Counted from the stretch's first letter, positions 4,931 through 60,145 are shown. The stretch is 64,000 nucleotides of DNA from Saprospiraceae bacterium (GCA_027080725.1 JALWRC010000095.1:7415-71414), one strand, 5' to 3'. Program-made: numbers and translations. The notes: generated by a model not told the origin, from the sequence alone.

Positions 4931-5070
4931 CCATTTCATATCAGGCAAAAGGAGTGCCTGCAGATATAACTATATCCACACGCTCGACGATTACCATTTC
5001 ATACCTGGTAAAAGTGGAGCGGACAGACAATACTTATCCCGTGCACCTGAAGATCACTATTTCATACCGG
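4931..5070 (-). repeat. Phased triplet of the GGTATGAAATGG word (cores at 4931, 4994, 5057; 63-bp spacing)
   Basis: Read directly. The units have a conserved ~19-nt head (GGTATGAAATrGTrATC) and divergent bodies. They lie in the convergent gap between icmF and the 1862-aa gene. Confidence 0.8.
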
Positions 5071-5114
5071 AAGATATGCGTAGAGCTCCAAATGGAGTTA
5101 TGTCGAATGGCCGG

Positions 5115-8100
5115 CTATTTCAAGATAGAGATATTACCGGTTTTGATGAGGTCTTCCCCGCCCGTACAGCGCACTTTGAGGTAGTACGAATAGACGTCCG
5201 GGGTCAATGCCACTCCTTTGAAGGTCCCGTCCCAGGGAACGGAGATATCAAAGGTCTCAAATACCTTTTCTCCCCAACGGTCATAGATGACAAACTCTAT
5301 TTGGTCAATAAAATGCCCCCGGACGTAGAGGAGGTCATTGACACCATCTGCATTTGGGCTGAACGCATTGGGGACGAAGACGATGGAAGGGTCACATGGG
5401 GGAGGAAGGACGGTGACGGTCACATCCAGAATATGCTCGCATCCGTTTTCGTCGATGATGGTGACGGTGTAAGTGGTCGTGCTATCCGGGCTGGCATCCG
5501 GGCGGTCGCACTGGCTGCAAGAGAGGGTCGTCACAGGCTCCCACTCAAAAGTGCCCGGCCCTTTGACCCACAGATGGGCCGTGCCGCCGGGGAAAATGGA
5601 GGTGTCGGGAGAGATGGTGAATTGTCCTTGATCCACATCGAAAACCCTTACCTCAAATTGGCCGCTTCCAGGACAATCGTTGGGGTCGGTGAAGCGGACC
5701 GTCCATGTGTTGCTCTTCGTGGGATGGGCGATGGACGGTGAGCCCTTAAGCGGAGCAGCCGGGTCAGCTCCATCCCATATGATATCTCGTACACCTTCGA
5801 TTGTCAATACGATGGAGTCTCCAGGACACAACTCAAAATCGATTAAATCGGGCTCATATACCGGAAGGAAGTACAGCGTATAGTGATAGATCTGAGCGCA
5901 GAGGCTAGCATCGGATACGGTCAGGCGGTATTGTCTGGAGAAAATGCTATCGTTCTGGAAGGTGTGGGTGACCATGTTTGCGGCGCAATCGGTACATGCC
6001 AGGTCCATCCCTTCCCAATGATAACTGGCGCCTTCGATTTTGGCAATCCCGATCTCTGTAGATGCGCCCGGACACAGCGTGTCTGTAAAATACAAGTCCG
6101 GAGGCATGATAGAGAACGTGGCGGTCGCCGGTGTACAGATACAATTCTCCCCTTCCGGAAAGCTCAGTATAAAATGGCAGATTCCGGCGGGCAATTGCCC
6201 CGGAAAATGGATGCATATTTTGGAGGTGTCGTTGGGATATATCGTGTCGTGAACGGAGAAGGTTTGCACCTCGATGTCATCCGGAGAAAGACCGTTGCCG
6301 GTCCGGTCTCCCGTGAGAATGAAGTGAAAGGAGTCCGCATAAAATGGCAGATCCTTCCATTCACCTGTCAACTTGAAGCACAATCGTATACCCGATGGCT
6401 CTGAAGAAGTCAGGCTGTCGATATGGAGAAGGCTAATATGTCCTTTGTCCATACTAAAGCGGACGGATTCTGAGCCTTCGATGACATCCAGATTGCATTC
6501 CAAACCGGTGGTCTTACATATGGCTTTGGAGCTATGCGTCCCTTGAATCCGTATTTCATACGTGTCGCAATCCAGCAGATCGGGGTCGGTGGTAACTCCG
6601 ACACTGAAGGCGATATCTACAAATCCATCTATGACCTCTGAGGCATCCCATTCCAAAACAGTTCGACCATTTACGGTGATTATACGCGGCTCTTTAGCGG
6701 TAAAATGACTGATGGCTTGGATGGATTGGGGGCGGTAGAGCAGCCCGGCGGGTAGAATGATTTGTATTTTGTCGCCGGTCGAAAACGGTTTGGAGGCAAA
6801 GAGCTGTACGAATAATCTACCTTCGGCCTGACAAGTGAAATGTCCGGGCTCCATGTGGCTTCCGTTGAATGAAATGGTTTTGGTGGAGGGGTCGGTATTC
6901 CGGATATTTATCGGTGCCGAGTTGCGCCGGACGATATTCGTAGGGATGTAGCAATTGCTCACCCCCTTGACCTGGAAATGCAGATAGGCACCGGGTTGAA
7001 AGTTGCAATCCAAGGTGCCGGATACACGTATATGAATCTTGGAATAAGTCATCTCTACTCCCGGCCATCCATCTTCTTTGTATTGCTCTATCAGGTCATT
7101 CATTTGCCATTGGTATTGTCCCGGAGCACGCTCTTCCGGAAGGGGCATAGGTATGAAATGGTTGGCATCATCAAAGGAGTAAACCAGTTCATCAGCCAAA
7201 AGATTAAAGCCCAGGGGAAGGTCCATGTCCAGCCGGACATGGAAGGCGGCACCTCTGTTGGCATTCCAGACACTCACTTCGACATAGCGCATGGTGTCAC
7301 AGATATCAAAGGGACCGGGAGTGGTGCTGATATCCATTTCGAGTTCGGGCGGGTAGCTTTTGACGGAGAGGTTAAAGGTGTCGACGGAACAGGCAGTGGC
7401 GAAAAAATCACCAGTGGTGTCACAGTTCCATCCGCTGATAATCTTTAGATATTGCCAATCGCAACTCTCATTGTCGGCGATGATGGTCAGGTCTGTGATA
7501 CTGTCTGATAGGGGTTTTATCACAATTTCCCCATCGTTTTCAAGATAGACACGTCCATGGTTATCCCTGATGCGTACATTGTTCAGTTCCGGACTCAAGC
7601 TGATAATTTTAAATCGAACTTCTTTAAGCGAGCTGTCCAAATGGGTGATATGTCCTTGCCATTGGCCTTTGTCGGTGGTACTGCGGAGTTGTAATGTCGG
7701 AATGGAGTAGCTAAATAGATTGTAGTCTCTATCCCGTTCGAATCCATAAGCATGGCGCCACAGATGCCGGACGAGTTCGGCATCGTTGGTATTGTAGAAA
7801 TACACATCTGGACCGATGTGATTGGTGATTATCCTGGTAGTCTGGACAGAATCTGTAAAGCCGCTGACCAGATCATGGCAGTCCTTGAGGGAGATATAGG
7901 GATAGATGAGAACATCGTAGGCTTCATCGAGCGCAAAATCTTGCTTGACGGGAAAAACCCACTTGTGGGACGGGGGGGTACGTTGAGGGATAATGGTGGA
8001 CTTGTGGACGATATTTTGAACGATAACAGAGGTGTCCGGATAGTAGTAATGCAAGACGACGCTATCCAGGGTGATAGCGGGATCAATGGTATAGAAGAAA

Positions 8101-10969: not shown

Positions 10970-12025
10970 TTAATACAGCATAAAGCTGACGCTAAATAGC
11001 CCCACAAGGAATAACAGACCTAAAACATAATAGAGAATAATGCCGGAAAGGAATTTTAATGCTGTTTTAATCCAACTGTCATGATAGTACCATTTCATAC
11101 TTAAAAAAACATAAACTATGGATAGCACTCCGGCTAAAATAAATACGAAGTCCGCCTCATTAAAAAAAGTTACGATGGCCAATGCTATGGAGAAACACAA
11201 GAATGCAAAGGCGTGATTGTGCAAAAGCAGGACCAAATGCTCTAAGTAATACTTTTTTTTACGGTAGTAGAGTAGTTTGAGAAAGAGGGCAAATGCCGGA
11301 ATGAGTAATATGATCATCCATATGAAGTGACCAATAACTTGCTTGCTAAAACCCGCAGGATTGTCACTTAGTTTGTAGGCCTGTGTGACCATTATTCGAT
11401 CCCAGTAATTTTTGATGTGGTACTTCTCAATGAGCTCTGCACTATTCAACCCGAGCAGGTCTGCCGTTTTGAAATAAAATGTTTTTCCGGACAGCAAATT
11501 AACTTCCATGGTACTGCTGTCAGAAAGGGCATTGGTGTTATTGCGGAGTAGGAAAGTATCCAATACGGCATAGGTCTTAGGGTCGCGGATTTGCGCTTCG
11601 TCCAAAGCCTGTTGGATTTCCTTTATGAGCAAATATTTTTTTGTCTTTCCTTTGAGCACACTTAGTGGATTATTTGTCTTCCCAAAGTCCATTTCAAGTG
11701 AGAAAGATGTGGTACTCAATAACCAAAAGAATAATACTGCCGAGACAAAAAAGAATCGAAAAGGTGGGTAATAACGATGGCGAATTCCGGCAAAATAGTC
11801 CTTGGTCAGTCGGCCGGGCAGTAGAGAACGCTTCAAAGTGCGTATGATTTTGGCATCCAGATTGAGCACCAGACTAAAAAAGTCATTGACCAATTCCCGG
11901 ACGGTAGGTATCCCTTTTTGCTGTTTTTGTCCACAATTGGGACAGTAAATCGCCTCATTATCTAAGGGATAGGAACAGTTTGGGCAGATGCTTTCTTGAG
12001 TCATAATCAAAGAGTATGAATGCAT
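10970..12025 (-). CDS. DUF3667-like membrane protein with N-terminal zinc ribbon
   Basis: It has CPNCSYPL...YCPNCGQKQ followed by multiple hydrophobic helices. The start may be Met8 at 12004. The gene is AT-rich relative to its neighbours. Confidence 0.55.
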   Translation of the reverse strand: MHSYSLIMTQESICPNCSYPLDNEAIYCPNCGQKQQKGIPTVRELVNDFFSLVLNLDAKIIRTLKRSLLPGRLTKDYFAGIRHRYYPPFRFFFVSAVLFFWLLSTTSFSLEMDFGKTNNPLSVLKGKTKKYLLIKEIQQALDEAQIRDPKTYAVLDTFLLRNNTNALSDSSTMEVNLLSGKTFYFKTADLLGLNSAELIEKYHIKNYWDRIMVTQAYKLSDNPAGFSKQVIGHFIWMIILLIPAFALFLKLLYYRKKKYYLEHLVLLLHNHAFAFLCFSIALAIVTFFNEADFVFILAGVLSIVYVFLSMKWYYHDSWIKTALKFLSGIILYYVLGLLFLVGLFSVSFMLY

Positions 12026-19123: not shown

Positions 19124-19401
19124 TACCCCCGTATTCTTTGTATGGGGCAGAATTTATACCCACGGACTACTTGGCTTCCCGTACTTATATGCGTCATATG
19201 GTATGAAATGGTTGAATTGGCGTTATGGGATATTTGATAAGGTGCCGCCAATATGGCAGTGCTTATGGAGTTGTTTTTATTGATACATGTCATATTGACG
19301 CCTTTCGAGCGCCGAATTTGCACATTTTGGGGGTTGGTACACGGATTGATAAGGGTAAGGTGTAGCAAATTTTAAACACAAACCATTAAAACCATAGAAT
19401 T

Positions 19402-21094: not shown

Positions 21095-23872
21095 CTATTT
21101 GATATGCAAGAGCTGAACGCCCTCAAAACGGAATTTCGGAGGATGCATTTTGTCCTTTTGTTCCCACACGAGCCCCTGCCAGGTATTGTCGCAACCATTG
21201 GTGAGGATGACATTCTGCAGGATGAGTTGGGCATCATCTTCGAGGATAATGCGGCCATTGGCCGGGAGACTCACCGTCACGGGCGCTTCTTTTGTTCCGG
21301 ATATCTGTAGGACATGCCCGGACGGAATCCGGATATCCCGGTCCAATCCCCGCGATTGGGTCCATGTTTCTTTAAGGCCAATGGTCCGGGCGACGGAACC
21401 GAGGTCTTCGGGAGAGGCCGCCAATGCCCCTTCCCAAATGCCCCTTCCGAAAGTCGCGGCGCGCAATTTGTTCATGCAGTAATTGATACGCAATTCGGTT
21501 ACCCGGACATTGGGGAAGTCGCACATATGTTTCCAACGGGACATCCCTTTGTCTTTGAAGTAAATGCCGGCATCGGTTCCGATGTAAAGCATATCCTCCG
21601 TACCGTTCTGGTAGACGATGTCGTTGACGGGTAGATTGGAGAGGGAACCCTCCGGGTCGGCATTCGTCCAGTGGTCCCCTCCGTCCTCCGTCTTCCAAAC
21701 CTTTATGCCGGGCTCATAACCCGTGAAGGTGATCCAGGCTTTTAGTGGATTTTCCGGGTCAAATACCACCGATGTCAATGCAGGAATCTCCAGGCTATCC
21801 CCTCGAAAGACCCTCGGCAGATAGTGCCGGTTGATGATACCACTGGCTTTGAGGCGCCCGGTGAGGTCCTTAAAGCAGGTGTCCTTCCGGTACCCATCGA
21901 TTCCGTCACACCCTCCTGTCGTGCTTAGGAAAAGATGGGATTGGACGACATACCCCTTCTTAAAGTCCTTCTGATATCCGTTGACGATGAGGTAGATGTA
22001 GTCGGGGTCAGAAGCGCAGATGTCGTATTCCGTCATTTGGCGCTTCCACCGGGCAGGGATGTATTTGCCGATATCCGAGCGCAGTACCCAAAGGCTATCC
22101 GCCGTATCGTTGCGCTTGGCCGGTCGATGCACTTTGCGTTCGTAAAGCTCGGTCATCGGTATCCAAACCCTGTCCGTGACCGGGTGGTTCTTCATTTGAA
22201 AGGACTTGATGAGGGGCAGTTTGCCGGTGGCCGGATCCCGGGGCAAAAGGCGCTTTATCCATTCGTTCTTCTGCCTTTTTGATATGAAATCGTAGGTCAT
22301 CAGGCGGTTGGACGAACCACTTCCCGCCCCAAATCCCAATCCACCTACCCAATCCACCTTGCCATTGTATCCGTCGCCTCCCTCGAACGTCGTCCACACT
22401 TTGCCGATGAGGACATCCGTGCCGTTGTCTTGGTTGCCGGTGATGATGTGATCCGGCCGGTCTGCCGCATCCCCAAACCGATGAATGGTCTTCACCTGCA
22501 ATCCCTCCGAGTCAAATTGCCATCCGGATGAACCGGCTCGGCTTACGGGTTTTTTGCTGATACCTCCATCCGTACCGGCATAAAGCGTCTTGCCATCCGG
22601 AGAAAAAACGAGGGTGTGCACATCGGCATGGTAGCCATTGCCGGAGTAGGATGAATATCCGCGAATATGGTGCATGTCTCCTCCGTACACCTTTGTGGTG
22701 CCGAAGAACAGGGTGTCGGCATTGCGGGGTGAAATCCCTATTGCTGTCCGTGTCGGGGTGGCCAACTCGAATGCACTGTAGGTCGTCGAATGGCGCAAAT
22801 GGTGCCATTTCATACCATCAAAATAGTAAATGTAATATTCCGGATGCCCGGAGTGCCCCACGATGTAGGCATACAATCGCTCCGGAGCGGCAGGGGTGAC
22901 CCCGATATTAATCCGGTCCACCTCAAATCCTTCGGACAAGGAGTCCAGCATTAGTCCGGTGCCGGGACCGGTCATACTCTGCCAATGCGCTCCCCCGTCC
23001 GTAGAGCGATAAATGTCCAAGCCGCTGGCGTAAAGCGTGTCGGGATGGGTCGGATGTAGCTCCAATCCCTTGAGTTGGCGATCCCGCTCGATGGTCGTGC
23101 CGGTAGCGGATATTTTTCTCCATTGGGGGAACGGTGCCTCGCGATCCGGACAGTAAAATATCCCCTCGCTGCTCACGATCCACATGCCCGGCGAACGCGG
23201 CGAAAGACGCACCTTACGAATCGCCCCTCCCTCCCGGAAGAACCCCAACAATGCCTCCTCCCGGCCATTTGCCGATTGCCAGTGAAGCCCACCGTCCCGG
23301 CTGCGAAAGACTCCGGCGGTGAAAATCGGGGTAAACTGACTCGAACTCCCGTCATCTGTGTTTTCTGCGTGGTGATTGGGGTTGTTTTCTCCATCCCCGG
23401 TCGTGACGAAAAGGGTGTTTTTATTCGCCGGGTCAATGGCCACATCCGATATCGAACTGTAAGGGAGTTGCCCTTGGCCGATGACATGCCATGCATGCCT
23501 CCCCTGTCGCTTCCAGAGGCCGCCGAAATTGCTGCCGGCATACATGACACTGTCGGTCTCATAATCGGGGCTGAAGGCGATGACGTGGATTTGCCCTTGC
23601 CCCTTGGAGGAGGTATAGCCCCCGGGGATGCCGGTCGGACCCAGACAATGCCATTGGGAATGATAGCAACCCGAATCCGCTCCGCCTAAGAAGGATATAG
23701 CGTAGCGCGTAATGTCCGGATCCGGTGGAAGCGTGTCGGTCCTGTTCTTATGGTATGAAATGGCACCATGTCCGGTGACGGCCAAATATCCGGCCCGGTC
23801 TCGTGACATGCTTATCCCGGACACCGCCCACATCCAAAATAATCCGAAAAACAGTAGGATAGTTCTTTGCAT
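21095..23872 (-). CDS. Secreted BNR/Asp-box repeat beta-propeller protein (sortilin/VPS10-like or glycosidase-like)
   Basis: Signal peptide MQRTILLFFGLFWMWAVSG. Repeated Asp-boxes SRDGGLHWQ, STDGGAHWQ and TEDGGDHW. Confidence 0.6.
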   Translation of the reverse strand: MQRTILLFFGLFWMWAVSGISMSRDRAGYLAVTGHGAISYHKNRTDTLPPDPDITRYAISFLGGADSGCYHSQWHCLGPTGIPGGYTSSKGQGQIHVIAFSPDYETDSVMYAGSNFGGLWKRQGRHAWHVIGQGQLPYSSISDVAIDPANKNTLFVTTGDGENNPNHHAENTDDGSSSQFTPIFTAGVFRSRDGGLHWQSANGREEALLGFFREGGAIRKVRLSPRSPGMWIVSSEGIFYCPDREAPFPQWRKISATGTTIERDRQLKGLELHPTHPDTLYASGLDIYRSTDGGAHWQSMTGPGTGLMLDSLSEGFEVDRINIGVTPAAPERLYAYIVGHSGHPEYYIYYFDGMKWHHLRHSTTYSAFELATPTRTAIGISPRNADTLFFGTTKVYGGDMHHIRGYSSYSGNGYHADVHTLVFSPDGKTLYAGTDGGISKKPVSRAGSSGWQFDSEGLQVKTIHRFGDAADRPDHIITGNQDNGTDVLIGKVWTTFEGGDGYNGKVDWVGGLGFGAGSGSSNRLMTYDFISKRQKNEWIKRLLPRDPATGKLPLIKSFQMKNHPVTDRVWIPMTELYERKVHRPAKRNDTADSLWVLRSDIGKYIPARWKRQMTEYDICASDPDYIYLIVNGYQKDFKKGYVVQSHLFLSTTGGCDGIDGYRKDTCFKDLTGRLKASGIINRHYLPRVFRGDSLEIPALTSVVFDPENPLKAWITFTGYEPGIKVWKTEDGGDHWTNADPEGSLSNLPVNDIVYQNGTEDMLYIGTDAGIYFKDKGMSRWKHMCDFPNVRVTELRINYCMNKLRAATFGRGIWEGALAASPEDLGSVARTIGLKETWTQSRGLDRDIRIPSGHVLQISGTKEAPVTVSLPANGRIILEDDAQLILQNVILTNGCDNTWQGLVWEQKDKMHPPKFRFEGVQLLHIK

Positions 23873-26225: not shown

Positions 26226-26717
26226 ATGAATCGATTGCAGCAGTTCAATGAGCGAATCGGCCGGTGGGTTTCGTGGCTCAATTTGGTCTTGATACTTTTG
26301 ATATGTTTTGATGTACTGTTTCGCTACGCATTTCATACCACCCACGCATGGATAATGGAGTTGGAATGGCAGCTATTTGCACTGATTTTTCTTCTCGGAG
26401 GGGCCTTTACTCTTGCCCGTGATAAACATGTGCGTGTTGACGTGTTTTATATACGACTGCCTGCAAAAGCGAAGGCTATCATAAACATAGCAGGTTATCT
26501 CTTATTGTTAACTCCATGGTGTTTGTTGATGATTTATACCGGTGGGAAGTATGCCCATCACGCCTTTGAGACGATGGAGGGGAGCCCCAATCCGGGCGGA
26601 TTGCCTTATTATTTTATTATAAAATCCATGATTGTATTTGGTTTTGCCTTGTTGTTGATACAAGGGATTGTGGAGATGATTTTAGAATTTAAGAAACTTC
26701 AGCATTGGAATACATAG
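26226..26717 (+). CDS. dctQ: TRAP transporter small permease (DctQ family)
   Basis: A 163-aa protein with four hydrophobic helices. It overlaps and precedes a DctM-type gene. Confidence 0.75.
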   Translation: MNRLQQFNERIGRWVSWLNLVLILLICFDVLFRYAFHTTHAWIMELEWQLFALIFLLGGAFTLARDKHVRVDVFYIRLPAKAKAIINIAGYLLLLTPWCLLMIYTGGKYAHHAFETMEGSPNPGGLPYYFIIKSMIVFGFALLLIQGIVEMILEFKKLQHWNT

Positions 26718-29543: not shown

Positions 29544-30110
29544 CAGTACGAGAGAGGGATAATACTCCCCAAGTAATAACTCACACCCCTCTTTCCGGAA
29601 TTACAAAGTTACATTACATTAACATAGGGTATCATTAATATCCGGTCAAAACTCAACCGTCTTACACCATCTTATGGTGTCTCTTCGTGTTTTTTATTGG
29701 CTAAGGATTGGATGATGCCCGGAGGAAAGCGCCGGCGATTTCATACCGCATTAACAGTATAGTATGAGATGAGATGAGTCATTTATGTTATGAAATGGTC
29801 GAATCACGTGCAGGCATGGACCTCAAGAACAGCCCCCCACCTCGCGAGCTAACGAGTTTGCCATCTTACCCCCCAACAGGCATAGTCTTCCATGGATAGG
29901 CGTGCTAAAGCGGCACGCTGTCTTTGATAACCAAAACTCAAAACTCATAGTGTATTGGCCGGAATGCCGGCGAATATACGAACATACCGTTTGTATTCTT
30001 GCGACTGCACCAAAGAGGTGCGGTGGTGGAGTTTGGACGTGTGTCATGAGTTAGAGTGGAGGGAATATTTTTAAACATTGTTCCATTTATTAATGCAAAA
30101 TTTTTAACTT

Positions 30111-35086: not shown

Positions 35087-35375
35087 TGCCTAATGGTGGG
35101 ATAAATCATTCGCATGTTTTCCTTTGATACGCTGCAGAATACGGGTTTTGATGGGGTATGAAATGGTGGAGTTCCATCCCATGGGCATAAATGATCTTTC
35201 AGCGAAAACAATCATATGAGTCGGACAGTATAGAAGGGCATTACGCTTCGATCTTTAGAAGGTAAAGTGTGTAAGTGATGATTTTATTGCTTTTCAATTG
35301 GGAATAGATGAAAAAATGCCCCTGGGATAAAAACAAATTGGTTGTGTTTTATATTAATATCCTAAAGCAGCGATA

Positions 35376-36860: not shown

Positions 36861-39284
36861 ATGAAGGCCTTATACCATGTACCCAAAATAGGTTTGACTG
36901 CCATCCTGCTCGGCATCATCGTTAGCATTTCATACGCGCAAGATGTCGAATTGTTCAGGATGCAGGAAGGACACACATTGGCTGCCGGTCAGATTCCCTT
37001 TGATTCTACCCTTCAGTTTATGGATGTGGATTTGACTTTGATGCATCAATTGTCTGCGGGAATTCCGGATTTCAGCCATTTCATGCTGCCGATTAAATCG
37101 AAGCGGTACACCATCCGAATGCATAAATACTCTTTGTCAGACGTGGAGGTGAAGCGTTGGGATGGGGGAGAGTCTCGACCCGTACAAGTGCGTCCTACTC
37201 CGCTTTACACCGGTGAGGTAGAAGGCGAGCCTGGAAGTATGGTGTATACCTACTCTTCCGGCGGGGCCCTTTATGGTTCGGTCCATCTTTCGCGCAAGGG
37301 GAGCTTCGATTTTGGTCCTGCACCGGGAGACAAGACAGGCAAAAAGTATGTTTTGATTAGCAAAGTTAAGGCGCACCACGGCCGGGGATTCACTTGCTCG
37401 GCAATTGATGATTTGTACTATCGGGACCGCGCCGCCATTGAGTCCAGGATTGTGCGCACGACTTGCAAGAAGGTTCGATTTTCCATTCATGCCGATTATG
37501 ATTTGTATGTCAAACTCGGGTATGACATTCAGCGTGTGGTGGATTATGTCAAAGGGGTATTCCATGGTGCATCGCAGATTTACAGAAAGGAAGGGATTCA
37601 TGTACAGTTGAGCGAGATCGTGGTTCATACGGTCGAGGACGACCTGCCACATACTTCTGCCAATGATGACCTTTGGGCATTTAAACGGGTGTTTAAGACC
37701 TACAACGGGGATCTGGTGATGTTGCTCTCCGGTTATACCGATTCTCAGGGGCATCCATCTTTGGGAGGGGTGGCCTTTACCAATAGTCTCTGTATCAAAA
37801 GCTATTCATATGCCTACGGCAATGTAGAAATCGACCCCAAGGCTTATCCGGTTTACTCGTGGGATGTACATGTCTTTACCCATGAGATAGGGCATATTTT
37901 GGGCTCTCCCCATACGCATGAATGTGTTTGGGGTCCCTTTCACAATGAGCCCATCGACGGATGTTATCCCTCTTCCAACGGGTGTCCCGCAGGGCCCATT
38001 CCCACAAAAGGGACCATTATGAGTTATTGTCACCTACCCGGAAGACCGGGAATTGATTTTACTCTTGGCTTTGGCGAAGAACCTGGCAATAAGATTAGGG
38101 CAAAAGTCGAATCGTCTTCCTGTTTGTCAGAGTATATCCCCGGCGCCGCCATACCGGTAGCAGTCGGAGTGTACCACGCCAATATCGAATGTACGGACGG
38201 GACGACTATCCATTATTATTACGATAACAACACGGTAGATGAATCAGATGATTTGTGGCTCCTCTCCATCGATACACGAGGGGAGGATATCGGTCATGTA
38301 GGAGATCCCGGTTTTGAGGTCAAAGTCGAAGTTGTCAAAAGCTCCTACGAGCCGACAGACATTACCGCACAATATGTTCCGGATGGCAAGGTGTTTCACG
38401 TGATTAATCGCTACTGGTTTGTAGGTACTTCTATGCAGCCCAATAGCCCGGTGGAAGTGCAGTTTCCTTACGAGCCTGAAGATTTTGATGGGTTGGATGC
38501 CGCCCTGGGTGGAGTGGACATGCAGCAATTGGAAGCCTACAAAATCGAACAACCTGGGACACCCAACCCACGACTGAATCACGCCGGCGCCGACACCTCC
38601 AACTATTTCCAATATACTTACGCCAATACACCTTCGATGAGTACTTGGTCGAATAGCGTGACCCCGGAAGGATTCTATCTCGCCTCATACGAATTAGATC
38701 ACTTTTCCGGCGGTGGGCTCGGGGTTTACACGCAATCCGCTTTGGCGATTACACTCAATTCCTTTTTCGTGTATAAGCACGATCCGGAGGTGGTTCTGGA
38801 ATGGGTCATTGGAGACGGGTCCACATCGCTTCGATTTGACATCCAACGCTCTACCGACGGTGTGCATTTTGAACATATCGGTCAAGTGGACGCGAGAAAT
38901 GATCAATCAAGGATAAACACCTACCATTTCATAGATAAAAGCCCTGCTTTGGGTACAAGCTATTATCGACTGAAAATGGTGGATTCGGATAGGAGTTACA
39001 CCTATTCCTCCATCCTGACTATACACCGGAGTGCGAACGATAGAGACGCGGAGCTGATAGTGGCTCCTAACCCAGTGACCGGCAGCATGGCCCAGCTGGT
39101 TTTAAGAGATGTCCCACTGCCCGCCACCCTTATGGTGTTTAACACTTTGGGTCTGAAGGTTATGGAGCAAAGAATCGTTGCAGATCGGACCGCGATTCAC
39201 CTATACTACTTGCCCTCCGGAATGTATTGGCTCGAGTTGCGTTCGAATGGTCAGTTACTAAGAAAGAATATAGTGATTCGCTGA
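36861..39284 (+). CDS. Secreted zinc metalloprotease (reprolysin/M12B-like HExxHxxGxxH) with type-A T9SS CTD
   Basis: It has HEIGHILGSPHTHE, a signal peptide, and a C-terminal APNPVTG...MVFNTLGLKV...YWLELRS sorting domain. Confidence 0.7.
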   Translation: MKALYHVPKIGLTAILLGIIVSISYAQDVELFRMQEGHTLAAGQIPFDSTLQFMDVDLTLMHQLSAGIPDFSHFMLPIKSKRYTIRMHKYSLSDVEVKRWDGGESRPVQVRPTPLYTGEVEGEPGSMVYTYSSGGALYGSVHLSRKGSFDFGPAPGDKTGKKYVLISKVKAHHGRGFTCSAIDDLYYRDRAAIESRIVRTTCKKVRFSIHADYDLYVKLGYDIQRVVDYVKGVFHGASQIYRKEGIHVQLSEIVVHTVEDDLPHTSANDDLWAFKRVFKTYNGDLVMLLSGYTDSQGHPSLGGVAFTNSLCIKSYSYAYGNVEIDPKAYPVYSWDVHVFTHEIGHILGSPHTHECVWGPFHNEPIDGCYPSSNGCPAGPIPTKGTIMSYCHLPGRPGIDFTLGFGEEPGNKIRAKVESSSCLSEYIPGAAIPVAVGVYHANIECTDGTTIHYYYDNNTVDESDDLWLLSIDTRGEDIGHVGDPGFEVKVEVVKSSYEPTDITAQYVPDGKVFHVINRYWFVGTSMQPNSPVEVQFPYEPEDFDGLDAALGGVDMQQLEAYKIEQPGTPNPRLNHAGADTSNYFQYTYANTPSMSTWSNSVTPEGFYLASYELDHFSGGGLGVYTQSALAITLNSFFVYKHDPEVVLEWVIGDGSTSLRFDIQRSTDGVHFEHIGQVDARNDQSRINTYHFIDKSPALGTSYYRLKMVDSDRSYTYSSILTIHRSANDRDAELIVAPNPVTGSMAQLVLRDVPLPATLMVFNTLGLKVMEQRIVADRTAIHLYYLPSGMYWLELRSNGQLLRKNIVIR

Positions 39285-39423
39285 TAGATTGGAGTAAACT
39301 GTTTTGCCTGAATTGTCTCGTATGAAATGGTCGATATTTTCCATTCACATTAAATTTATTCTTAATGCATTATATTTTTATAATTAAATGCTTATAAATT
39401 AGGAATGATTGGCAAATCCTTTT

Positions 39424-41942: not shown

Positions 41943-44516
41943 ATGAAGAAAACTCAAACTACTTTCACCATCCTCCTTCTGACTTGGATAATGATTGTTG
42001 TCTCTTTCGCATCCGAACCGGAGCTCTCCTTTAGATTGGAGTGCCCGGGCAATGTGACGGTCTCCTGTATGGATGAGCTTTGGGATTTGTCCATCTATGG
42101 GCATGCCTATATATGGGAGCATTATGTAAAGCGAGATGCAGGACCGCCAACCCGTGTAGAACGGGATTTGAATTCCTGCGGTGTCGGGGAAATTCGACGC
42201 ATATGGGAGGTCGAAGACCCCAATTGGAATATCGTCACCTGTACCCAAACCATCACGGTCGGTGCTAGAGGGGGCTTTGGCGAGAAGGACATTATTTGGC
42301 CGGAGTCGTTTGATACTTCGGGGTGTACCCTGGACCTCGATCCGTACAAGCTTCCCAAGAAGTACTCGATTCCCAGATTTAAGCGGGTAGCGTGCTCTAA
42401 GCCCGGATATTCCTATAAGGACAGAGTGTTCACCGTGAATGGCAGCTGCAAAAAGATTATGCGTACCTGGGAAGTCGTGGATTGTTGCAATTGGAATCCG
42501 GATGACCCATGGGGGAAAGGGTATTGGAAGCACTATCAGATCATTAAATTGATTCAGAAAGATTCTCCGACCATTACCAACTGCCCGAAGAAAATCGAGG
42601 TAGAGGCAAAGACCTGTGATGGCGCTTTTGTCGATCTAGATACGGTCGTAGCGATAGATAAGTGCGGCAATAAGCTAAAGGTGTGGCACAATTCGCCCTA
42701 TGCAGATACGAGTAGAGGTCCGGATGCGACAGGTACCTATCCCATTGGCACGACCAAATTCTACTACATCATCAAATACTCCTGCGGACGTACCATAAAA
42801 TGTCCTGTCGAAATCACCGTTAAGAACAACTTGCAGCCGCGGGTCTATTGCCGCAGTGGTGTAATTACCACCCTTATGGGTATGGATACGGACGGAGACG
42901 GAGTAAACGACGAGGGAATGGCTGAGATTTGGGCAAAGGATTTGGATCGGGGAAGCACACCCAAATGTGGTGGGAAGCGACTTTGGTTCTCCTTCTCCAG
43001 CGACACCTCCGATATGTCACGTATTTTTACCTGTGATAATGTCGGTGAGAACGAAGTGCATGTATGGGTGACAGATGAGTTTGGCAACCAAACCTACTGT
43101 GTCACCAAAGTGATTATTCAGAACAATGCCTCGAATATCAAAGATTGTATGCCGGATTCATTGCGACCCAAGATTAATCACCTGGCTGGTATTATTGCCA
43201 CTTCTAAAGGGGAGCCTATAGAAGAAGCACATGTCACATTAACTGATTCGGAAAAGCGCCTGGTGGTACATACGACTTGGGATACTTCCATAGTGGAAAC
43301 AAGAGATACTTTTATCGGTAAATCCGGTAATCAATATGTCCGGATCCATAAAGACACCACCATCACAGCTACCCAAGACAGGAGTTATGAGGCGGTAGTG
43401 TATCGTGTTTCTTCCAATTCAGCCGGGACGTATGCTTACGATAGTATCCCCAAAGGGAGGTCTTATCGCTTGGCTGTATCCATGGGGGGACAGGCCGGTG
43501 ACGGGGTCAATACCCATGATTTGTTCCGTTTGATGAACCACCTTAACGGATTTGCACCCTTCCAATCTGCCTATTCCTATATCGCAGCGGATCTGGATGA
43601 GAATGGGATAGTCGATCAGAAGGATTATTCCATATTGCTTTCCAGTCTTATGCCATTTGGTCGAAAAACAGACCCCTTCCGCGCATGGAAATTTATCGAC
43701 AAACATAAGGAGATAGACCTTAGTAAAACACTGGATTACAATCATCTTGAAAATTGTGTCTTTGGTCCGCTTGATGCAGACCATACCGATATGGATTTCG
43801 TAGCCATAAAACTCGGAGATATCGACCGGGCAGGAAGCGGTCAACCTTGGCTTCGACAAGAGTCTCTAACGGTTATGCGATGGGGTGATGCCGTTATAAC
43901 GAAGGATGACAAAGTGCTTATCCCGGTATTTTTGGATAAAAAAGGACAAACTTCGGGGATGGTCAACCTCGAGTGGCCGGAGCACTGGAGGGGGTATACC
44001 ACACTTGTTGATGGCACCGCAATGGTTTCCTCACAATCAGATGACGCTACGGGCTATAGGACGATAGTGTGGGTAGATCCCTTTGTACACCCGAGTGGAG
44101 TTCCACTCTTTTACATCCGTCTCAATACCTCAGAGGAGGCTCTCCAATCCTTACGCTCTGTCCGGATAGTTGATGGACAGGATGCTTATTGTATGGATAA
44201 GGATGGTGTGTCCACCCGGTTGGATCTGAGGTTTGCAGATGAGAAGATTTCTGGTCTTTCCTCCGACAGGCCAACTGTAGGCCCCAATCCATTTGTCCAT
44301 TCCTTTCATGTTCGTTTTTCGCATGAAATGGTGGACCATTCGTGCAAGGTTGAAGTCTATGATGTCGTAGGAAAAATAGTGATGACATGGGCAGGCATGG
44401 CAAGGGTAGAAGGGAAAGTATTCCATCTTCCTTCCGGCACAAAGGGCAATGTCTTTATTTGCAAAATACAATCCGGAGCACGTACTTATAGCACAAAGTT
44501 GGTTAGATTGAAATAG
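41943..44516 (+). CDS. T9SS-secreted surface protein, shorter paralog of 30111..35009
   Basis: ORF trimmed to MKKTQTTFTILLLTWIMIVVSFA. Collinear matches to the large paralog include YCRSGVITT.M, W.KDLD.GS, and dockerin-like DLDENGIVDQKDYSILLSSLM. It ends in a type-A CTD (GPNPFVHSF...VYDVVGKIV). Confidence 0.75.
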   Translation: MKKTQTTFTILLLTWIMIVVSFASEPELSFRLECPGNVTVSCMDELWDLSIYGHAYIWEHYVKRDAGPPTRVERDLNSCGVGEIRRIWEVEDPNWNIVTCTQTITVGARGGFGEKDIIWPESFDTSGCTLDLDPYKLPKKYSIPRFKRVACSKPGYSYKDRVFTVNGSCKKIMRTWEVVDCCNWNPDDPWGKGYWKHYQIIKLIQKDSPTITNCPKKIEVEAKTCDGAFVDLDTVVAIDKCGNKLKVWHNSPYADTSRGPDATGTYPIGTTKFYYIIKYSCGRTIKCPVEITVKNNLQPRVYCRSGVITTLMGMDTDGDGVNDEGMAEIWAKDLDRGSTPKCGGKRLWFSFSSDTSDMSRIFTCDNVGENEVHVWVTDEFGNQTYCVTKVIIQNNASNIKDCMPDSLRPKINHLAGIIATSKGEPIEEAHVTLTDSEKRLVVHTTWDTSIVETRDTFIGKSGNQYVRIHKDTTITATQDRSYEAVVYRVSSNSAGTYAYDSIPKGRSYRLAVSMGGQAGDGVNTHDLFRLMNHLNGFAPFQSAYSYIAADLDENGIVDQKDYSILLSSLMPFGRKTDPFRAWKFIDKHKEIDLSKTLDYNHLENCVFGPLDADHTDMDFVAIKLGDIDRAGSGQPWLRQESLTVMRWGDAVITKDDKVLIPVFLDKKGQTSGMVNLEWPEHWRGYTTLVDGTAMVSSQSDDATGYRTIVWVDPFVHPSGVPLFYIRLNTSEEALQSLRSVRIVDGQDAYCMDKDGVSTRLDLRFADEKISGLSSDRPTVGPNPFVHSFHVRFSHEMVDHSCKVEVYDVVGKIVMTWAGMARVEGKVFHLPSGTKGNVFICKIQSGARTYSTKLVRLK

Positions 44517-48200: not shown

Positions 48201-49535
48201 ATGTATACCCTCATCTTTGATATCGGAAAGACCAATAAAAAGTGTTTTGTCTTTGATGAACAGTTGGAGGTGGTATATAGTGATGCGATCACCTTCGCAG
48301 AGATAGAAGACGATGACGGGTTCCCTTGTGATGATTTGGAAGCGCTGACGTGTTGGGTTAGAACCCAATTTGCAGCCTTGACAGACCGGTATCCCATACA
48401 AAACATCAATTTCTCTACTTACGGAGCGTCCTTCGTACACATCGGGGCAGAGGACAAGCCGCTGCTCCCTCTTTTTAATTATCTAAAACCCTTACCGGAG
48501 GAAGTGGAGCGTGCTTTCCTTCAGAATTATGGGAGTATGATGCGATTTTCCCTCGAGACAGCTTCACCGTATTTAGGTATGCTCAACTCCGGGTTGCAGC
48601 TCTATTGGTTGAAGCATACCTATCTTGAAGTTTATAAGAAGATGAAGTACAGCCTCCATTTTCCACAGTATTTGAGCTTTTTGTTCTCCGGGCAAGCCTG
48701 TTCGGATTACACGAGTTTGGGGTGTCATACCGGGTTGTGGACATTTCATACCGGACAATATGCCGGCTGGGTGTCAAAGGAAGGGCTGGATAAAATACTC
48801 GCCCCCGTACGGCCTACCACCGACGTGCTGTCATCCGGGAGGTATGCCATTGGCACAGGAATCCACGATAGCTCCGCAGCGCTTGTGCCTTACCTGGTTG
48901 GCTCTGAGGGGCGGTTTGTATTGTTGTCAACGGGGACGTGGAGCATCGCTCTTAATCCATTCAATGAAGCGCCTTTGTCTGAAGAGGACTTGCTTCATGA
49001 CACCCTCCTTTTTATGGATATTTACGGGCGCCCTGTCAAGGCTTCCCGCCTTTTTCTGGGCAAGGAACACGATGAACAGGTTGCCCGGCTCACCCGTCGT
49101 TTTAAGGTCCGGGGGGAGGCATACAAATCGGTATCGTTTGATTTAGGATTTTATATGAAATGGCGGAGTAGGGGAGTGATGCCCACTTTCGAGTACCTCA
49201 ATGGAGGTCCGGACGGCTCAGACGACTATAAAAAGTGCAGTACCTTTGAAGAGGCATATCATCTGTTGATGTATGGACTGGTGCGGGTGCAGTTGGAGGC
49301 TCTAAGTCGCTGTATTGGGGATACCAAGGAGATAACCCGTATTTTTGTGGATGGAGGATTTGCCAACAACGCGCTATTTGTGCGGATGCTGGCCTTGGAG
49401 TTGCAGCCGATTGAAGTGATTACTTCGCAATTGGCCGGAGGGTCTGCATTAGGGGCGGCACTCGTGATGGATACCTCCCGCTTCGATAATGTACGATTTC
49501 ATACCAACTTAAATCTAAAGAAAATACCGGTTTGA
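48201..49535 (+). CDS. FGGY-family carbohydrate kinase, probable rhamnulokinase
   Basis: FGGY N- and C-terminal domains (FDIGKTNKK, GIHDSSAAL, STGTW, VDGGFANN). It lies between rhaI and lutA. Confidence 0.7.
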   Translation: MYTLIFDIGKTNKKCFVFDEQLEVVYSDAITFAEIEDDDGFPCDDLEALTCWVRTQFAALTDRYPIQNINFSTYGASFVHIGAEDKPLLPLFNYLKPLPEEVERAFLQNYGSMMRFSLETASPYLGMLNSGLQLYWLKHTYLEVYKKMKYSLHFPQYLSFLFSGQACSDYTSLGCHTGLWTFHTGQYAGWVSKEGLDKILAPVRPTTDVLSSGRYAIGTGIHDSSAALVPYLVGSEGRFVLLSTGTWSIALNPFNEAPLSEEDLLHDTLLFMDIYGRPVKASRLFLGKEHDEQVARLTRRFKVRGEAYKSVSFDLGFYMKWRSRGVMPTFEYLNGGPDGSDDYKKCSTFEEAYHLLMYGLVRVQLEALSRCIGDTKEITRIFVDGGFANNALFVRMLALELQPIEVITSQLAGGSALGAALVMDTSRFDNVRFHTNLNLKKIPV

Positions 49536-50278: not shown

Positions 50279-51618
50279 GTTCTACTTTCCATGACAAATC
50301 CAATGCATTTTTAAAGGAGGAATCTCGTTCCAACTGGCATGATAAAGCCTTGTGGTATGTTCGCGAAAAACGGGATAATGCGATGAGTGATGTGCCGGAT
50401 TGGGAGAAGCTGAGAACGGCTGCATCCCGGATAAAAGCCCACACTTTGACCCATTTGGACGCCTATTTGCTCGACTTCGAAGCGGCGGCAGCGGCCAATG
50501 GAGTGCGAGTGCATTGGGCAAAAGATGCCACGGAACACAATAGGGCCATCTACGAGATTTTGAAGGGACATGAAGTCACAAAGGTCGTCAAAAGCAAATC
50601 AATGCTGACGGAAGAATGTGGATTGAATCCCTATTTGGAGGCACGAGGTGTCGAGGTAATCGATACGGATTTAGGAGAGCGCATTATCCAGCTAAAAGGA
50701 GAGCCACCGAGCCATATTGTCTTACCGGCCATTCATATCACTAAAGAAGAGGTTTCCGAGATTTTTCATTCGGCTTGGGGGACCCAACAGGGCAATTCAG
50801 ATCCGAAATATCTAACGCTGGCGGCGCGAGCATCGTTGCGGGAGGATTTTATGACCTCCGGAGCTGCGATTACAGGGGTCAATTTTGCCATCGCGGAGAC
50901 CGGAGAAGTGGTGGTATGCACCAATGAAGGCAATGCTGACCTCGGTACACATATCCATCCATTGCAAATTCACTCGATGGGCATCGAAAAACTCATTCCG
51001 CGAAGGACAGACCTCGGTGTTTTTACACGCTTGCTGGCCAGAAGTGCCACCGGGCAGCCCATTACGGTGTACACCTCCCATTTCCAAAGGCCCAAACCCG
51101 GAGGAGAGATGCATATTGTTATCGTGGACAATGGTCGCAGTCGCCGCTTGGGAGAGGAGACATTTTGGTCTTCATTGAAGTGCATTCGCTGTGGTGCCTG
51201 TATCAATACCTGCCCCATTTACCGTCGTTCGGGAGGGCACAGTTACGGGCATACTATCCCCGGCCCGATCGGGTCGATTTTGGCACCTGATACGGACCTC
51301 CGGCGTTATTCCCAGCTCCCTTTTGCTTCTACTTTGTGCGGATCTTGTAGCGAAGTGTGCCCGGTGCAGATCGACATCCACAACCAACTTTACCGTTGGC
51401 GCCAGGTGGCTGTAGGACAAGGGCAGGTATCCGGCTTGAAATCCCGGATGATGCGCATCGCTGGCAAAATATTGGCCAATCCTCGTTGGTATCGTCGCGT
51501 CATGTCGATGATGAGATGGGGTATGAAATGGTTGCCCGCCAGTTGGTTGCACCACCGTTGGAATGCCTGGGCGAAAGGGCGAAGTATGCCACAAATCAAG
51601 AACAAAAACGATGAGTGA
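50275..51618 (+). CDS. lutB: Lactate utilization protein B (4Fe-4S, LUD domain)
   Basis: CIRCGACINTCP and CGSCSEVCP ferredoxin motifs plus a LUD domain. Confidence 0.85.
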   Translation: MSSTFHDKSNAFLKEESRSNWHDKALWYVREKRDNAMSDVPDWEKLRTAASRIKAHTLTHLDAYLLDFEAAAAANGVRVHWAKDATEHNRAIYEILKGHEVTKVVKSKSMLTEECGLNPYLEARGVEVIDTDLGERIIQLKGEPPSHIVLPAIHITKEEVSEIFHSAWGTQQGNSDPKYLTLAARASLREDFMTSGAAITGVNFAIAETGEVVVCTNEGNADLGTHIHPLQIHSMGIEKLIPRRTDLGVFTRLLARSATGQPITVYTSHFQRPKPGGEMHIVIVDNGRSRRLGEETFWSSLKCIRCGACINTCPIYRRSGGHSYGHTIPGPIGSILAPDTDLRRYSQLPFASTLCGSCSEVCPVQIDIHNQLYRWRQVAVGQGQVSGLKSRMMRIAGKILANPRWYRRVMSMMRWGMKWLPASWLHHRWNAWAKGRSMPQIKNKNDE

Positions 51619-57148: not shown

Positions 57149-57165
57149 TTTATTATAACCTCATA

Positions 57166-57589: not shown

Positions 57590-57609
57590 GTGCAGTTTGT
57601 AATACACCC
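57590..57609 (+). repeat. Orphan copy of the 18-nt motif (GTGCAGTTTGTAATACACCC)
   Basis: It points into the 3' end of radC with no -7 box downstream. With 57131-57148 it brackets a 479-bp ORF-free segment. Confidence 0.5.
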
Positions 57610-57663
57610 ACCCACGTACTATCACAGGATATACTTAATCCGCATTGGAATACTCCGGCATGT

Positions 57664-58371: not shown

Positions 58372-58490
58372 ACTTCACAATTATTAATGTGTTCGACAGG
58401 GTAAAGATAGGAAAAGCCCACCATTTCATACCTGATTTGATTAATTTTTTTATGTTTGGGAGTATTTTATCATATCACAAACATGCTCAT

Positions 58491-59978
58491 ATGGAGTCTT
58501 ACGGTTTTTTGTCTGTTCTACCCCCCGTTTTAGCCATTCTCCTGGCCATCCGGACCAAGCAGGTCTATGTTTCTTTGGTCTTCGGCATCGGCTTGGGCTG
58601 GTTGATTCTTTCGCACTGGAACCCGTGGGTGGGTTTTCTCAATACCATCGAAGCTTTTGTGAACGTATTTCAATCTCGGGGCAATACCCGAACCATCATG
58701 TTTAGTGCACTCGTGGGAAGTCTCATCGTGCTGATACAACGCTCGGGCGGTGTGCATGGGTTTATCGATGGGGTGGAGCGCTATCTCGAGCGCCTCGAGG
58801 GACGCGATATTCAGCATAAGCGCAGGTTTGTTCAGATGTTGGCGTGGCTGGTTGGCGTCATTGTCTTTGTAGAGACGAGCATCTCCTCTTTGACCGTGGG
58901 AACCCTTTTTCGCCCGATATTTGACAAATTGCACATCTCGAGGGAAAAGCTGGCTTACATAGCGGATGCGAGTTCGGCTGCCACTTCGATTATGATACCC
59001 TTTAATGCTTGGGGGGCTTTTATCATGGGACTATTGATAACGCAGGGCTTCGACGAGCCGTTTACGGCGATGTTTCGCTCCATGCCGTACAATTTCTACC
59101 CCATATTGACGCTGGCCATGGTACCCATCCTCGTCTGGTGGTCTTTGGACTTTGGCCCGATGAAAAAGGCGGAACTCCGCGCCAATACCACCGGAAAAGT
59201 CATCGCCGACGGAGCGAAACCCATGATAAGTGAGGACCTCCTCCATGTCGAACCCGTAGAGGGTAAGCCTCGACGGATGATGAACATGCTTATCCCTATC
59301 GGTGTCATGGTAGGGATGATGCCCGTGATGCTTTCGATTACCGGATGGCAAGATGCCGTCACTGCCAACCCCGATGCCGGAACCTTTGCGACCATCCTCA
59401 CCGCTATAGGTAAGGGGTCCGGATCGACCTCTGTGCTGGTGTCCGTCATTTTAGCGATATTGGTGTGCATGTTGCTCTACTGGGGGCAGCGTCTGATGGG
59501 GTTTCTGGAGATGGTGGAACTCTCGATTAAGGGCCTCTCCAATATGATGCCGCTGGCTTTGCTCATGCTTCTCGCCTTTGCCATCGGAGCTGTGTGCAAA
59601 TCCCTTGGGACCGGCCAATATGTAGCCGAGGTAGCCAAATCCTGGTTGTCGCCCGCTCTCGTTCCGTCCATCGTTTTTGTCGTAAGTGCGTTTATCGCCT
59701 TTTCTACCGGCACCTCCTGGGGGACCTTTGCGATTATGATTCCCATCGCCGTGCCCATGGCGCAGACCATGGATGTCAATGTCTATATGGCCATCGCAGC
59801 GGCTTTGGGCGGGGGCGTTTATGGCGACCACAGTTCGCCGATATCCGACACCACGATTATATCATCCATGGCTTCCGCGAGCGACCATATCGACCATGTC
59901 AACACCCAAATGCCCTACGCCCTTGTCGCCGGGGGCATATCTGTCGTCCTGTATTTGATATTGGGTTTTATCCGGTAG
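58491..59978 (+). CDS. Na+/H+ antiporter NhaC-family membrane protein
   Basis: ORF 58359..59978 trimmed to MESYGFLSVLPPVLAILLAIRTKQ. It is a polytopic protein with NhaC-like sequence. Confidence 0.75.
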   Translation: MESYGFLSVLPPVLAILLAIRTKQVYVSLVFGIGLGWLILSHWNPWVGFLNTIEAFVNVFQSRGNTRTIMFSALVGSLIVLIQRSGGVHGFIDGVERYLERLEGRDIQHKRRFVQMLAWLVGVIVFVETSISSLTVGTLFRPIFDKLHISREKLAYIADASSAATSIMIPFNAWGAFIMGLLITQGFDEPFTAMFRSMPYNFYPILTLAMVPILVWWSLDFGPMKKAELRANTTGKVIADGAKPMISEDLLHVEPVEGKPRRMMNMLIPIGVMVGMMPVMLSITGWQDAVTANPDAGTFATILTAIGKGSGSTSVLVSVILAILVCMLLYWGQRLMGFLEMVELSIKGLSNMMPLALLMLLAFAIGAVCKSLGTGQYVAEVAKSWLSPALVPSIVFVVSAFIAFSTGTSWGTFAIMIPIAVPMAQTMDVNVYMAIAAALGGGVYGDHSSPISDTTIISSMASASDHIDHVNTQMPYALVAGGISVVLYLILGFIR

Positions 59979-59987
59979 AGGATGTGC

Positions 59988-60145
59988 AGGTATGAAATGG
60001 TGGAGATTGGTGTTGTGGTGGACCATCTTGCTATCTGATATGGATCCTGTTCTTTTCCGGTATGAAATGGTGGAGTTGTCGTTGTACACAAGACATTTCA
60101 TCTTCTGAAGTGCCTTTGGTTTTTTTCGGTATGAAATGGCGGGCG
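59988..60145 (+). repeat. Phased triplet of the GGTATGAAATGG word (cores at 59991, 60061, 60130; 70- and 69-bp spacing)
   Basis: Read directly. It starts 13 bp after the nhaC-like stop, and the bodies between the heads are divergent. Confidence 0.8.

Follow-up and report, generated by a model that had tools for sequence, protein, structure and literature searches.

Why does a single 10-nt word, TATGAAATGG, recur along a bacterial chromosome, inside genes as well as between them? The question is raised by a 64,000-nt stretch of DNA from a Saprospiraceae bacterium (GCA_027080725.1, JALWRC010000095.1:7415-71414), analyzed here over its whole length and hereafter called the window. An initial annotation, made by reading this DNA alone, had listed 17 exact copies of the word or its other-strand form CCATTTCATA, estimated their excess at ~100-fold, and likened them to DNA uptake sequences, to polar words of the Chi or KOPS (FtsK-orienting polar sequence) type, or to a repetitive extragenic palindromic (REP)-like or 3′ untranslated region (3′-UTR) protein-binding element. 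Here we report that the word is an abundant, lineage-restricted, DNA-level signal whose copies arose by substitution, whose core is spared among near-copies, and which is conserved at orthologous sites. We tentatively propose that it most resembles the DNA uptake sequence (DUS) of Neisseriaceae and the uptake signal sequence (USS) of Pasteurellaceae.

The word is strongly over-represented

Both strands of the window together held 17 exact copies of the 10-mer, whereas dinucleotide shuffles gave 0.32 on average and never more than 3, and an order-3 Markov model predicted 0.24. Under the same model, the 12-mer GGTATGAAATGG occurred 11 times against 0.02 expected, and the 8-nt core TATGAAAT occurred 37 times against 3.4. 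Allowing up to one mismatch in the 12-mer raised its count to 22, where 0.44 were expected. An unbiased ranking of all k-mers from k = 8 to k = 12 against the Markov expectation placed the word and its sub-words at the head of every list. The excess amounts to ~50-70-fold for the 10-mer and ~500-fold for the 12-mer. The Markov comparison proposed by the initial annotation therefore leaves a strong excess standing, and the earlier figure of ~100-fold was of the right order of magnitude. Outside the window, 16.3 kb of flanking DNA on the same contigs contained five further exact copies at unchanged density, so that a specific 9-12-nt word lies far above compositional expectation over ~80 kb of genome covered, as is the case for DUS and USS. 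At a frequency of ~1 per 3-4 kb, within genes and between them, the density extrapolates to ~1000 copies per genome.

Sixteen of the 17 coordinates first listed were exact, and the remaining one, 58431 on the minus strand, is a typographical error for 58421. Both near-copies mentioned with them are real (Table 1), as are two subtypes continuing as ...GGTGGAG (10-mers at 35157, 59991 and 60061) and ...GGCACCA (4931, 22805 and 23754). The division into seven copies within open reading frames (ORFs) and ten between genes was reproduced with the same ORFs, which encode a CHU_C giant protein, a DUF3667 protein, a BNR/sortilin-like protein (two copies), an M12 protease, an FGGY kinase and LutB; Pfam annotation agrees with these assignments. 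Because the ten intergenic copies fall in only 16% of the window, intergenic copy density is ~8 times that of coding DNA. The window is matched by near-identical contigs in several independent assemblies (ENA, JGI, Logan and NCBI), and the word is therefore not an assembly artefact. Including relatives, the sample comprised ~120 kb from three lineages, with gene calls on the relatives' contigs made as greedy ORF calls; the numbers behind the orientation and conservation statistics given below are small.

The word is the core of an asymmetric site

When 63 non-redundant copies were combined into a logo, information was confined to the stretch from about -10 to +14, which delimits an asymmetric site of ~16-24 bp. 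Its elements are, in reading order, a T-rich tract, GG, the invariant TATGAAATGG, and then T, any base, G and A. Aligning all copies for an extended consensus, as had been suggested, added only the T-tract and TnGA; beyond them, the flanks of different copies were unrelated. The word is non-palindromic, its reverse complement being CCATTTCATACC. Among ten one-mismatch variants of the 13-mer, all were altered at flank positions 1, 2, 11 or 13 and none within the eight core positions, and the few core changes observed elsewhere were T-to-C at the first core base. Thus, the word forms the core of a DNA-level, asymmetric site whose near-copies almost never alter TATGAAAT.

The word is restricted to a Saprospiraceae-like lineage

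We found three lineages that carry the word, the second and third being metagenome-assembled genomes at NCBI. Lineage 1 is the window organism itself (46.6% GC). Lineage 2 (GCA_054023015.1, 42% GC), whose NhaC is 83% identical to that of the window, has five copies in 15.5 kb on contig L311 and one in 6.4 kb on L314. Lineage 3 (GCA_054038295.1, 44% GC; NhaC 87% identical) contains, within 15.6 kb of L312, two exact copies plus several near-copies. More distant genomes differed sharply: the closest NusA among GTDB species representatives, from Saprospiraceae/Lewinellaceae metagenome-assembled genomes (MAGs), was only 75% identical, and 1.34 Mb around nusA in 80 other Saprospiraceae/Bacteroidota genomes contained the 10-mer 4 times and the 12-mer never. 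The closest relatives of the LutB and FGGY proteins (35-36% GC) had zero copies at the loci checked. Counting in related genomes, a check that the initial annotation had recommended, thus gave a similar density in lineage 2, about half in lineage 3 and near-absence in the 80 others. These results indicate that the word is restricted to a Saprospiraceae-like lineage of Bacteroidota.

We also scanned metagenomes for close word pairs, a pattern that biases the yield towards arrays. Most of the 108 loci recovered were ordinary tandem repeats of unrelated organisms containing the 11-mer; about a dozen were genuine, being contigs of 41-52% GC with dispersed extra copies. No orthologs of window genes were found on the word-bearing metagenome contigs. 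Among viral contigs, 104 matches were obtained, nearly all single-copy, and none came from a multi-copy phage. A full-text literature search for the exact word returned PCR primers only, and to our knowledge no word of the uptake type has been reported from Bacteroidota. The 80 related loci showed no comparable phenomenon with other words: their sole strong 10-mer belonged to a plain 11-bp tandem repeat (ACACTTGTCTG, ~9 copies near nusA) at 5826-6060 of contig L016, from an unrelated Saprospiraceae MAG, which is not an analogue of the word. Separately, the unrelated metagenome contigs L144, L120-L122, L138, L154 and L182 carry long, regularly spaced arrays (period 30-64 bp, at most 21 units) in which each unit contains GTATGAAATGG; these may be CRISPR (clustered regularly interspaced short palindromic repeat) arrays or satellites from other organisms.

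The word is conserved at orthologous sites

The BNR-like gene of the window has a syntenic ortholog on L311, with 64% amino-acid, 62.6% nucleotide and 39% third-codon-position identity. The 2.8-kb codon alignment of the two genes contains only five identical runs of at least 13 nt, three of which include the core: GATGGTATGAAATGG (15 nt), CCTACGATTTCATA (14 nt) and TGCCATTTCATAC (13 nt). Indels lie on both sides of the 13-nt run, which forms one conserved site in an indel-riddled N-terminus. At orthologous sites, the word stays fixed even though synonymous sites have saturated. A second case lies downstream of nhaC, where a copy 10 nt past the stop codon in the window is matched by one 6 nt past it in lineage 2 (L314/L315, one copy); lineage 1 has expanded it to three units and lineage 3 has none. 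At the BNR-like sites and at the nhaC 3′ copy, the word is thus kept far better than its flanks and is common to related species, a property shared with DUS and USS, while one intergenic site was not conserved.

Copies arose by substitution, not insertion

All six coding sites checked aligned with homologues without gaps, indicating that the coding copies arose by substitution. The four sites in LutB and the FGGY kinase lie at poorly conserved columns. In LutB, the window's RWGMKWLP aligns gap-free against R(I/W)ALK(I/L)LP of 13 homologues; in the kinase, YMKW, TFHTG and RFHTN are likewise gap-free at variable columns. In the BNR-like protein, GMKW stands opposite GHVW, GRRW and GGKW, and AISY opposite GVST, GLSH and AISF in more distant homologues. 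Between 98%-identical strains, word sites differed by substitutions only, whereas a genuine miniature inverted-repeat transposable element (MITE) in the same genome showed a clean insertion polymorphism. A MITE or insertion sequence (IS) was ruled out as the source of the word by these observations, together with the lack of consensus past about -10 to +14 and the unrelated array spacers. The initial annotation had named membership of all copies in one IS or MITE family as a refutation, and this is not what the unrelated flanks and the six of six gap-free coding sites show.

The MITE-like family of this genome has terminal inverted repeats GTGTGTATTACAAAGTGCrC ... GTGCAGTTTGTAaTACAC. Its two window copies span 23994-24768 (~775 bp, with a tandem repeat, GCTGAAGCGAACGGCAAAA x3.4, inside it at 24117-24182) and 57128-57615 (~490 bp), and the polymorphic third copy of ~235 bp lies at 4240-4476 of strain L002 and is absent at window position 12091. 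A similar end, AAATTTGTAATACA, was seen on the word-bearing contigs L132, L136 and L159.

The word acts at the nucleic-acid level

Across all lineage loci, the coding copies, 15 in sense and 16 in antisense orientation, fill all five stop-free frames on both strands, and only the frame that would yield a TGA stop has no copy. The word reads MKW, YEM, HFI, ISY or FHT according to its frame and strand, which rules out a peptide motif and upholds the initial view of a DNA or RNA signal at the nucleic-acid level. Like DUS and USS, it occupies both orientations, several frames and intergenic DNA, at permissive positions where nothing was inserted. RNA folding around eight copies was no better than that of shuffles (z-scores -1.5 to +1.2), and Rfam at its gathering threshold found two tRNAs only in the window; an RNA family or structure was thereby ruled out. 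A terminator was rejected as well, since the copy at 35155 comes after a separate, ordinary hairpin-plus-T-run terminator at 35055-35090. As for a promoter, the Bacteroidota -7 box has the consensus TAnnTTTG, which the word does not resemble and which sits normally upstream of a tRNA gene.

Short arrays and inverted pairs

Copies are significantly clustered in the window. Three gaps there are shorter than 100 bp (P ~0.007; P ~0.02 within intergenic DNA alone), although Tandem Repeats Finder does not report the word arrays. Neighbouring units of one array are homologous (z 3.2-4.7), whereas arrays from different loci are unrelated. The simplest account is local tandem duplication, in which two direct copies close to each other underwent slippage or unequal exchange and everything except the word then diverged rapidly. 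CRISPR arrays were excluded, as only 12-24 nt recur in 2-6 units and the neighbouring "spacers" are homologous. Inverted pairs occur at 29736/29787 in the window and on L167, L130 and L159. Between strains, the arrays were ~10% (about 11%) divergent, compared with 1.5% in coding DNA, and their terminal units were decaying. We set aside single-nucleotide polymorphism density near copies as uninformative, because some word-free spacers are equally variable.

A possible self tag of the DUS/USS type

We lean, with caution, towards reading the word as a protein-recognised DNA word that is kept by selection or drive and is most like a DUS/USS uptake sequence. A protein reader, and DNA uptake as the underlying process, are proposed here by analogy with those systems, and we favour a tag of this kind because drive would explain why the word is confined to so narrow a range of lineages and also why so long an exact word is in such extreme excess. 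The recognition site would be asymmetric double-stranded DNA of ~16-24 bp, comprising the T-rich tract, GG TATGAAAT GG and T-n-G-A. Point substitution or short-patch recombination would create copies wherever the position is permissive, and selection or molecular drive would then keep them. Where two direct copies came to lie close together in an unconstrained spacer, slippage or unequal exchange could duplicate the interval and so give rise to a short array. A DNA-uptake or recombination-associated protein that prefers word-bearing DNA would cause conspecific DNA to be preferentially taken up and recombined, and this preference would in turn spread and preserve the word. Among the systems that the initial annotation had compared, DNA uptake sequences have held up best, and conservation at orthologous sites in a second species strengthens the likeness. 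Its nucleic-acid signal also stood, and the IS/MITE origin that it had named as a refutation was excluded; its 3′-UTR, Chi/KOPS and REP comparisons were not supported.

In textbook accounts, sequence-specific DNA uptake is restricted to Neisseriaceae and Pasteurellaceae, and DUS dialects reportedly exist within Neisseriaceae. Until now, words distributed and retained in this manner have been known chiefly as the uptake tags of Neisseria and Haemophilus and as the HIP1 word of cyanobacteria. Most USS copies are intragenic, and the USS flank includes an A/T-tract. Like the word described here, the DUS of Neisseriaceae (GCCGTCTGAA / AT-GCCGTCTGAA) is a non-palindromic word of 10-12 nt that occurs on both strands at hundreds- to thousands-fold over expectation, with a higher density between genes than inside them. 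It also sits at permissive sites, is far better conserved than its surroundings, is common to related species and forms inverted pairs. It differs in belonging to Betaproteobacteria rather than Bacteroidota and in its unrelated sequence; the word is ~3 times less dense, has a 5′ T-tract, and occurs more commonly in direct tandem arrays than in inverted pairs. The USS of Pasteurellaceae (AAGTGCGGT, with AT-rich flanks) shares with the word a short invariant core next to a looser flank with an A/T-tract, as well as many intragenic copies in several frames and at poorly conserved positions. It differs in sequence and phylum, and the intergenic share is higher for the word (10/17 in the window). 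Published descriptions of DUS/USS give a 10-12-nt word in ~2000 copies, mostly intergenic and in regions that are permissive; conservation of the word itself is high, inverted pairs occur sometimes, and USS-flanking regions are less conserved than the USS (PMC2397512).

Several points weigh against a DUS/USS-type tag. The role assigned to the word is a proposal by analogy, and all its sequence properties would fit equally well another selected role at the DNA level, as proposed for HIP1. Two genes that might be thought relevant are present, radC (window 57664-58371) and cinA (L311), but they are widespread and therefore not diagnostic of competence. We know of no sequence-specific uptake in Bacteroidota. 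Direct arrays, here with periods of 25, 38 and 53-80 bp, have not been described for DUS/USS, and their extra copies decay between 98%-identical strains, so that not every copy is constrained. In the radC-nhaC spacer, a perfect lineage 1 copy and a degenerate lineage 3 copy stand at different positions, which indicates turnover; one of two intergenic comparisons therefore showed turnover rather than conservation. Finally, the density in lineage 3 is about halved, and ~120 kb from three lineages is the whole sample.

The main rival is nearly as good in our assessment, even though we regard it as somewhat doubtful: the word could be a site of the HIP1 or nucleoid type, bound by an abundant protein (nucleoid-associated, chromosome-structuring or an orphan modification enzyme) and kept by ordinary selection for chromosome organisation, with no part played by uptake. 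Every fact that marks the word as selected at the DNA level fits this explanation equally. An asymmetric 16-bp site with a T-tract would suit a bending protein, and sites clustered at 25-80 bp periods would suit cooperative binding. HIP1 exceeds expectation 15- to 300-fold, is preserved both inside ORFs and between them, and has no peptide, RNA or gene-regulation role (PMC5861425), hallmarks that the word shares in its hyper-abundance, its conservation in and between ORFs and its want of a peptide or RNA role. A recent preprint reportedly links HIP1 to transformation efficiency (10.1101/2024.09.10.611283). Both HIP1 (GCGATCGC, of cyanobacteria) and the word are hyper-abundant in one clade and retained at orthologous positions, inside ORFs as well as between them. 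HIP1, however, is an 8-bp palindrome tied to methyltransferases, whereas the word is asymmetric, longer, less dense and present in local arrays; no palindrome with cognate orphan methyltransferases was seen here, the word being non-palindromic and methyltransferases not having been searched for. It also counts against this alternative that known nucleoid proteins have degenerate sites rather than a near-invariant 8-12-mer, and that drive accounts for a narrow lineage range more readily than a general architectural need would.

Three further explanations fare much worse. The word might be what is conserved in a very short mobile repeat of the REP, REPIN or MITE kind, dispersed by a transposase-like enzyme, an idea prompted by the roughly eightfold higher intergenic density, the local arrays, inverted pairs able to form hairpins (such as a perfect 15-bp inverted repeat on L167) and an array that fills the sufB-sufC spacer on L190. 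REP/REPIN elements and MITEs are likewise abundant short repeats, enriched between genes, in arrays or inverted doublets. REPs, however, are imperfectly palindromic, lie essentially outside genes and multiply by insertion, whereas the word is non-palindromic and shares nothing beyond ~24 bp, lies inside genes in 7/17 copies, and originated by gap-free substitution at all tested coding sites. The REP-like hairpin suggested earlier is absent because the word is no palindrome, folding energies around copies do not exceed those of shuffles, strains show no insertion polymorphism at word sites, unlike at the genuine MITE, and near-copies keep the core instead of decaying evenly. This alternative is very improbable and largely refuted. 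An RNA-level role, as a 3′-UTR protein-binding site, processing site or terminator-associated motif, seemed attractive while the window alone was considered, in which 8 of the 10 intergenic copies lie 10-174 nt beyond the stop of a co-oriented upstream gene and the two others (29789 and 58421) between divergent genes. In the wider sample, with arrays counted once, ~11 intergenic events were co-oriented with the upstream gene and ~8 were not. A three-unit array on L190 is antisense to the suf operon whose sufB-sufC spacer it fills, and a six-unit array with a 25-bp period on L143 lies between two minus-strand genes and is antisense to both. Together with the balanced sense and antisense coding copies, the lack of structure or Rfam match and the normal terminator ahead of the copy at 35155, these results leave the earlier 3′-UTR reading with hardly any credibility. 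We consider it equally remote that the word serves recombination or segregation as a polar signal like Chi or KOPS, recognised by AddAB/RecBCD or FtsK. Like such octamers, the word is short and asymmetric, with a chromosome-wide excess that includes genes; 11 of the 17 window copies are on the G-rich plus strand, probably the leading strand, and some copies end in TGGTGG, which we take to resemble the 3′ end of E. coli Chi. Yet some strand skew is to be expected of a word with five G and no C; with arrays counted once, 13 of 19 events on the plus strand is not significant, and the relatives' contigs have no consistent strand; the polarity suggested earlier is weak in the window (11 plus, 6 minus on a G-skewed strand). 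Known Chi and KOPS words are 5-8 nt long and only few-fold over-represented, that is, shorter than the word and in far weaker excess, and tandem arrays and inverted pairs would make no sense for a polar signal.

If a DUS/USS-like tag is nevertheless the correct interpretation, it would predict natural competence in an environmentally common, uncultured group. It is conceivable, though we would not count on it, that this is the first uptake-signal-type self word outside Proteobacteria, belonging to an uncultured Saprospiraceae-like clade with sequence-selective transformation or another form of kin-DNA recognition through GGTATGAAATGG(TnGA) plus the T-tract and a putative receptor. HIP1 is the only other well-studied hyper-abundant selected word, and its function is still unsettled, so a third independent case in another phylum would help. 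An asymmetric site with core-and-flank structure and orthologous conservation offers a fresh system for comparing uptake drive with selection for chromosome function. The word also provides a concrete bait for finding the cognate protein (for example, GGTATGAAATGGTGGA), could mark contigs of the clade for binning, and could possibly improve DNA delivery into relatives.

Copies and other features of the window

Table 1 Exact copies and near-copies of the word, with window coordinates, strand and context
Form	Position	Strand	Context
GATATGAAATGG	4931..4942	-	third unit of 63-bp-period array downstream of CHU_C giant gene
exact 12-mer	4994..5005	-	second unit of 63-bp-period array by CHU_C gene
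near-copy GGTATGAAATAG	5057..5068	-	first array unit; 46 nt beyond CHU_C gene stop
exact 12-mer	7150..7161	+	CHU_C giant gene, antisense; gene frame reads HFIP
AGTATGAAATGG	11090..11101	-	DUF3667 gene, sense, SMKW; T-run upstream
exact 12-mer	19200..19211	+	intergenic; 76 nt after lspA, 190 nt before hsp20
near-copy GATATGAAATCG	22281..22292	+	BNR-like gene, antisense; core and flank same in L311 ortholog
exact 12-mer	22805..22816	-	BNR-like gene, sense, GMKW; 15/15 nt same at L311 orthologous site
exact 12-mer	23752..23763	+	BNR-like gene, antisense, AISY; 13/13 nt same in L311, indels either side
near-copy GGTATGAAATGC	26328..26339	-	dctQ-like gene, antisense
near-copy GGTATGAAATCG	29736..29747	-	inverted partner of 29787 copy
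GTTATGAAATGG	29787..29798	+	830-bp spacer of divergent DUF423 / adhesin genes
exact 12-mer, then TGGAG	35155..35166	+	~65 nt beyond terminator 35055-35090 that follows 1632-aa adhesin gene
TCTATGAAATGG	38924..38935	-	M12 protease gene, antisense, HFID
CGTATGAAATGG	39319..39330	+	34 nt after M12 protease gene stop
near-copy CGCATGAAATGG, then TGGAC	44320..44331	+	T-run upstream; first core base T-to-C
near-copy GGTATGAAATGT	48741..48752	-	FGGY kinase gene, TFHTG; gap-free vs homologues
TATATGAAATGG	49152..49163	+	FGGY kinase gene, sense, YMKW; gap-free, variable column
near-copy GGTATGAAATCG	49494..49505	-	FGGY kinase gene, RFHTN; gap-free vs homologues
exact 12-mer	51520..51531	+	lutB, sense, GMKW; gap-free vs R(I/W)ALK(I/L)LP, 13 homologues
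exact 12-mer	58421..58432	-	spacer of divergent radC / nhaC
three exact 12-mers (59989, 60059, 60128; periods 70, 69)	59989..60139	+	array begins 10 nt after nhaC stop

The 830-bp spacer between the divergent DUF423 and adhesin genes (29279-30110) is unusually long; a -7 box of Bacteroidota type lies near 29545, and the spacer also holds the inverted word pair and has no Rfam match. A tandem repeat, GGATTTGCCCT x3.8, lies at 4852-4893 directly after the mutase gene and adjoins the word array there. An intergenic segment of ~179 bp occurs twice with ~90% identity, at 20040-20220 downstream of hsp20 and at 41479-41655 upstream of an 889-aa gene, and both copies include a bare TATGAAAT that lacks the flanking GG. 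Between 98%-identical strains, the 5′ end of the CHU_C giant gene (10600-10800) and the DUF3667/OMP spacer (12026-12259) are hypervariable, with up to 35 differences per 100 bp. Two paralogous Gp49-like/helix-turn-helix (HigB/HigA-type) toxin-antitoxin pairs, at 52737-53388 of the window and at 5508-6193 of L303, lie ~55 kb apart on the same contig.

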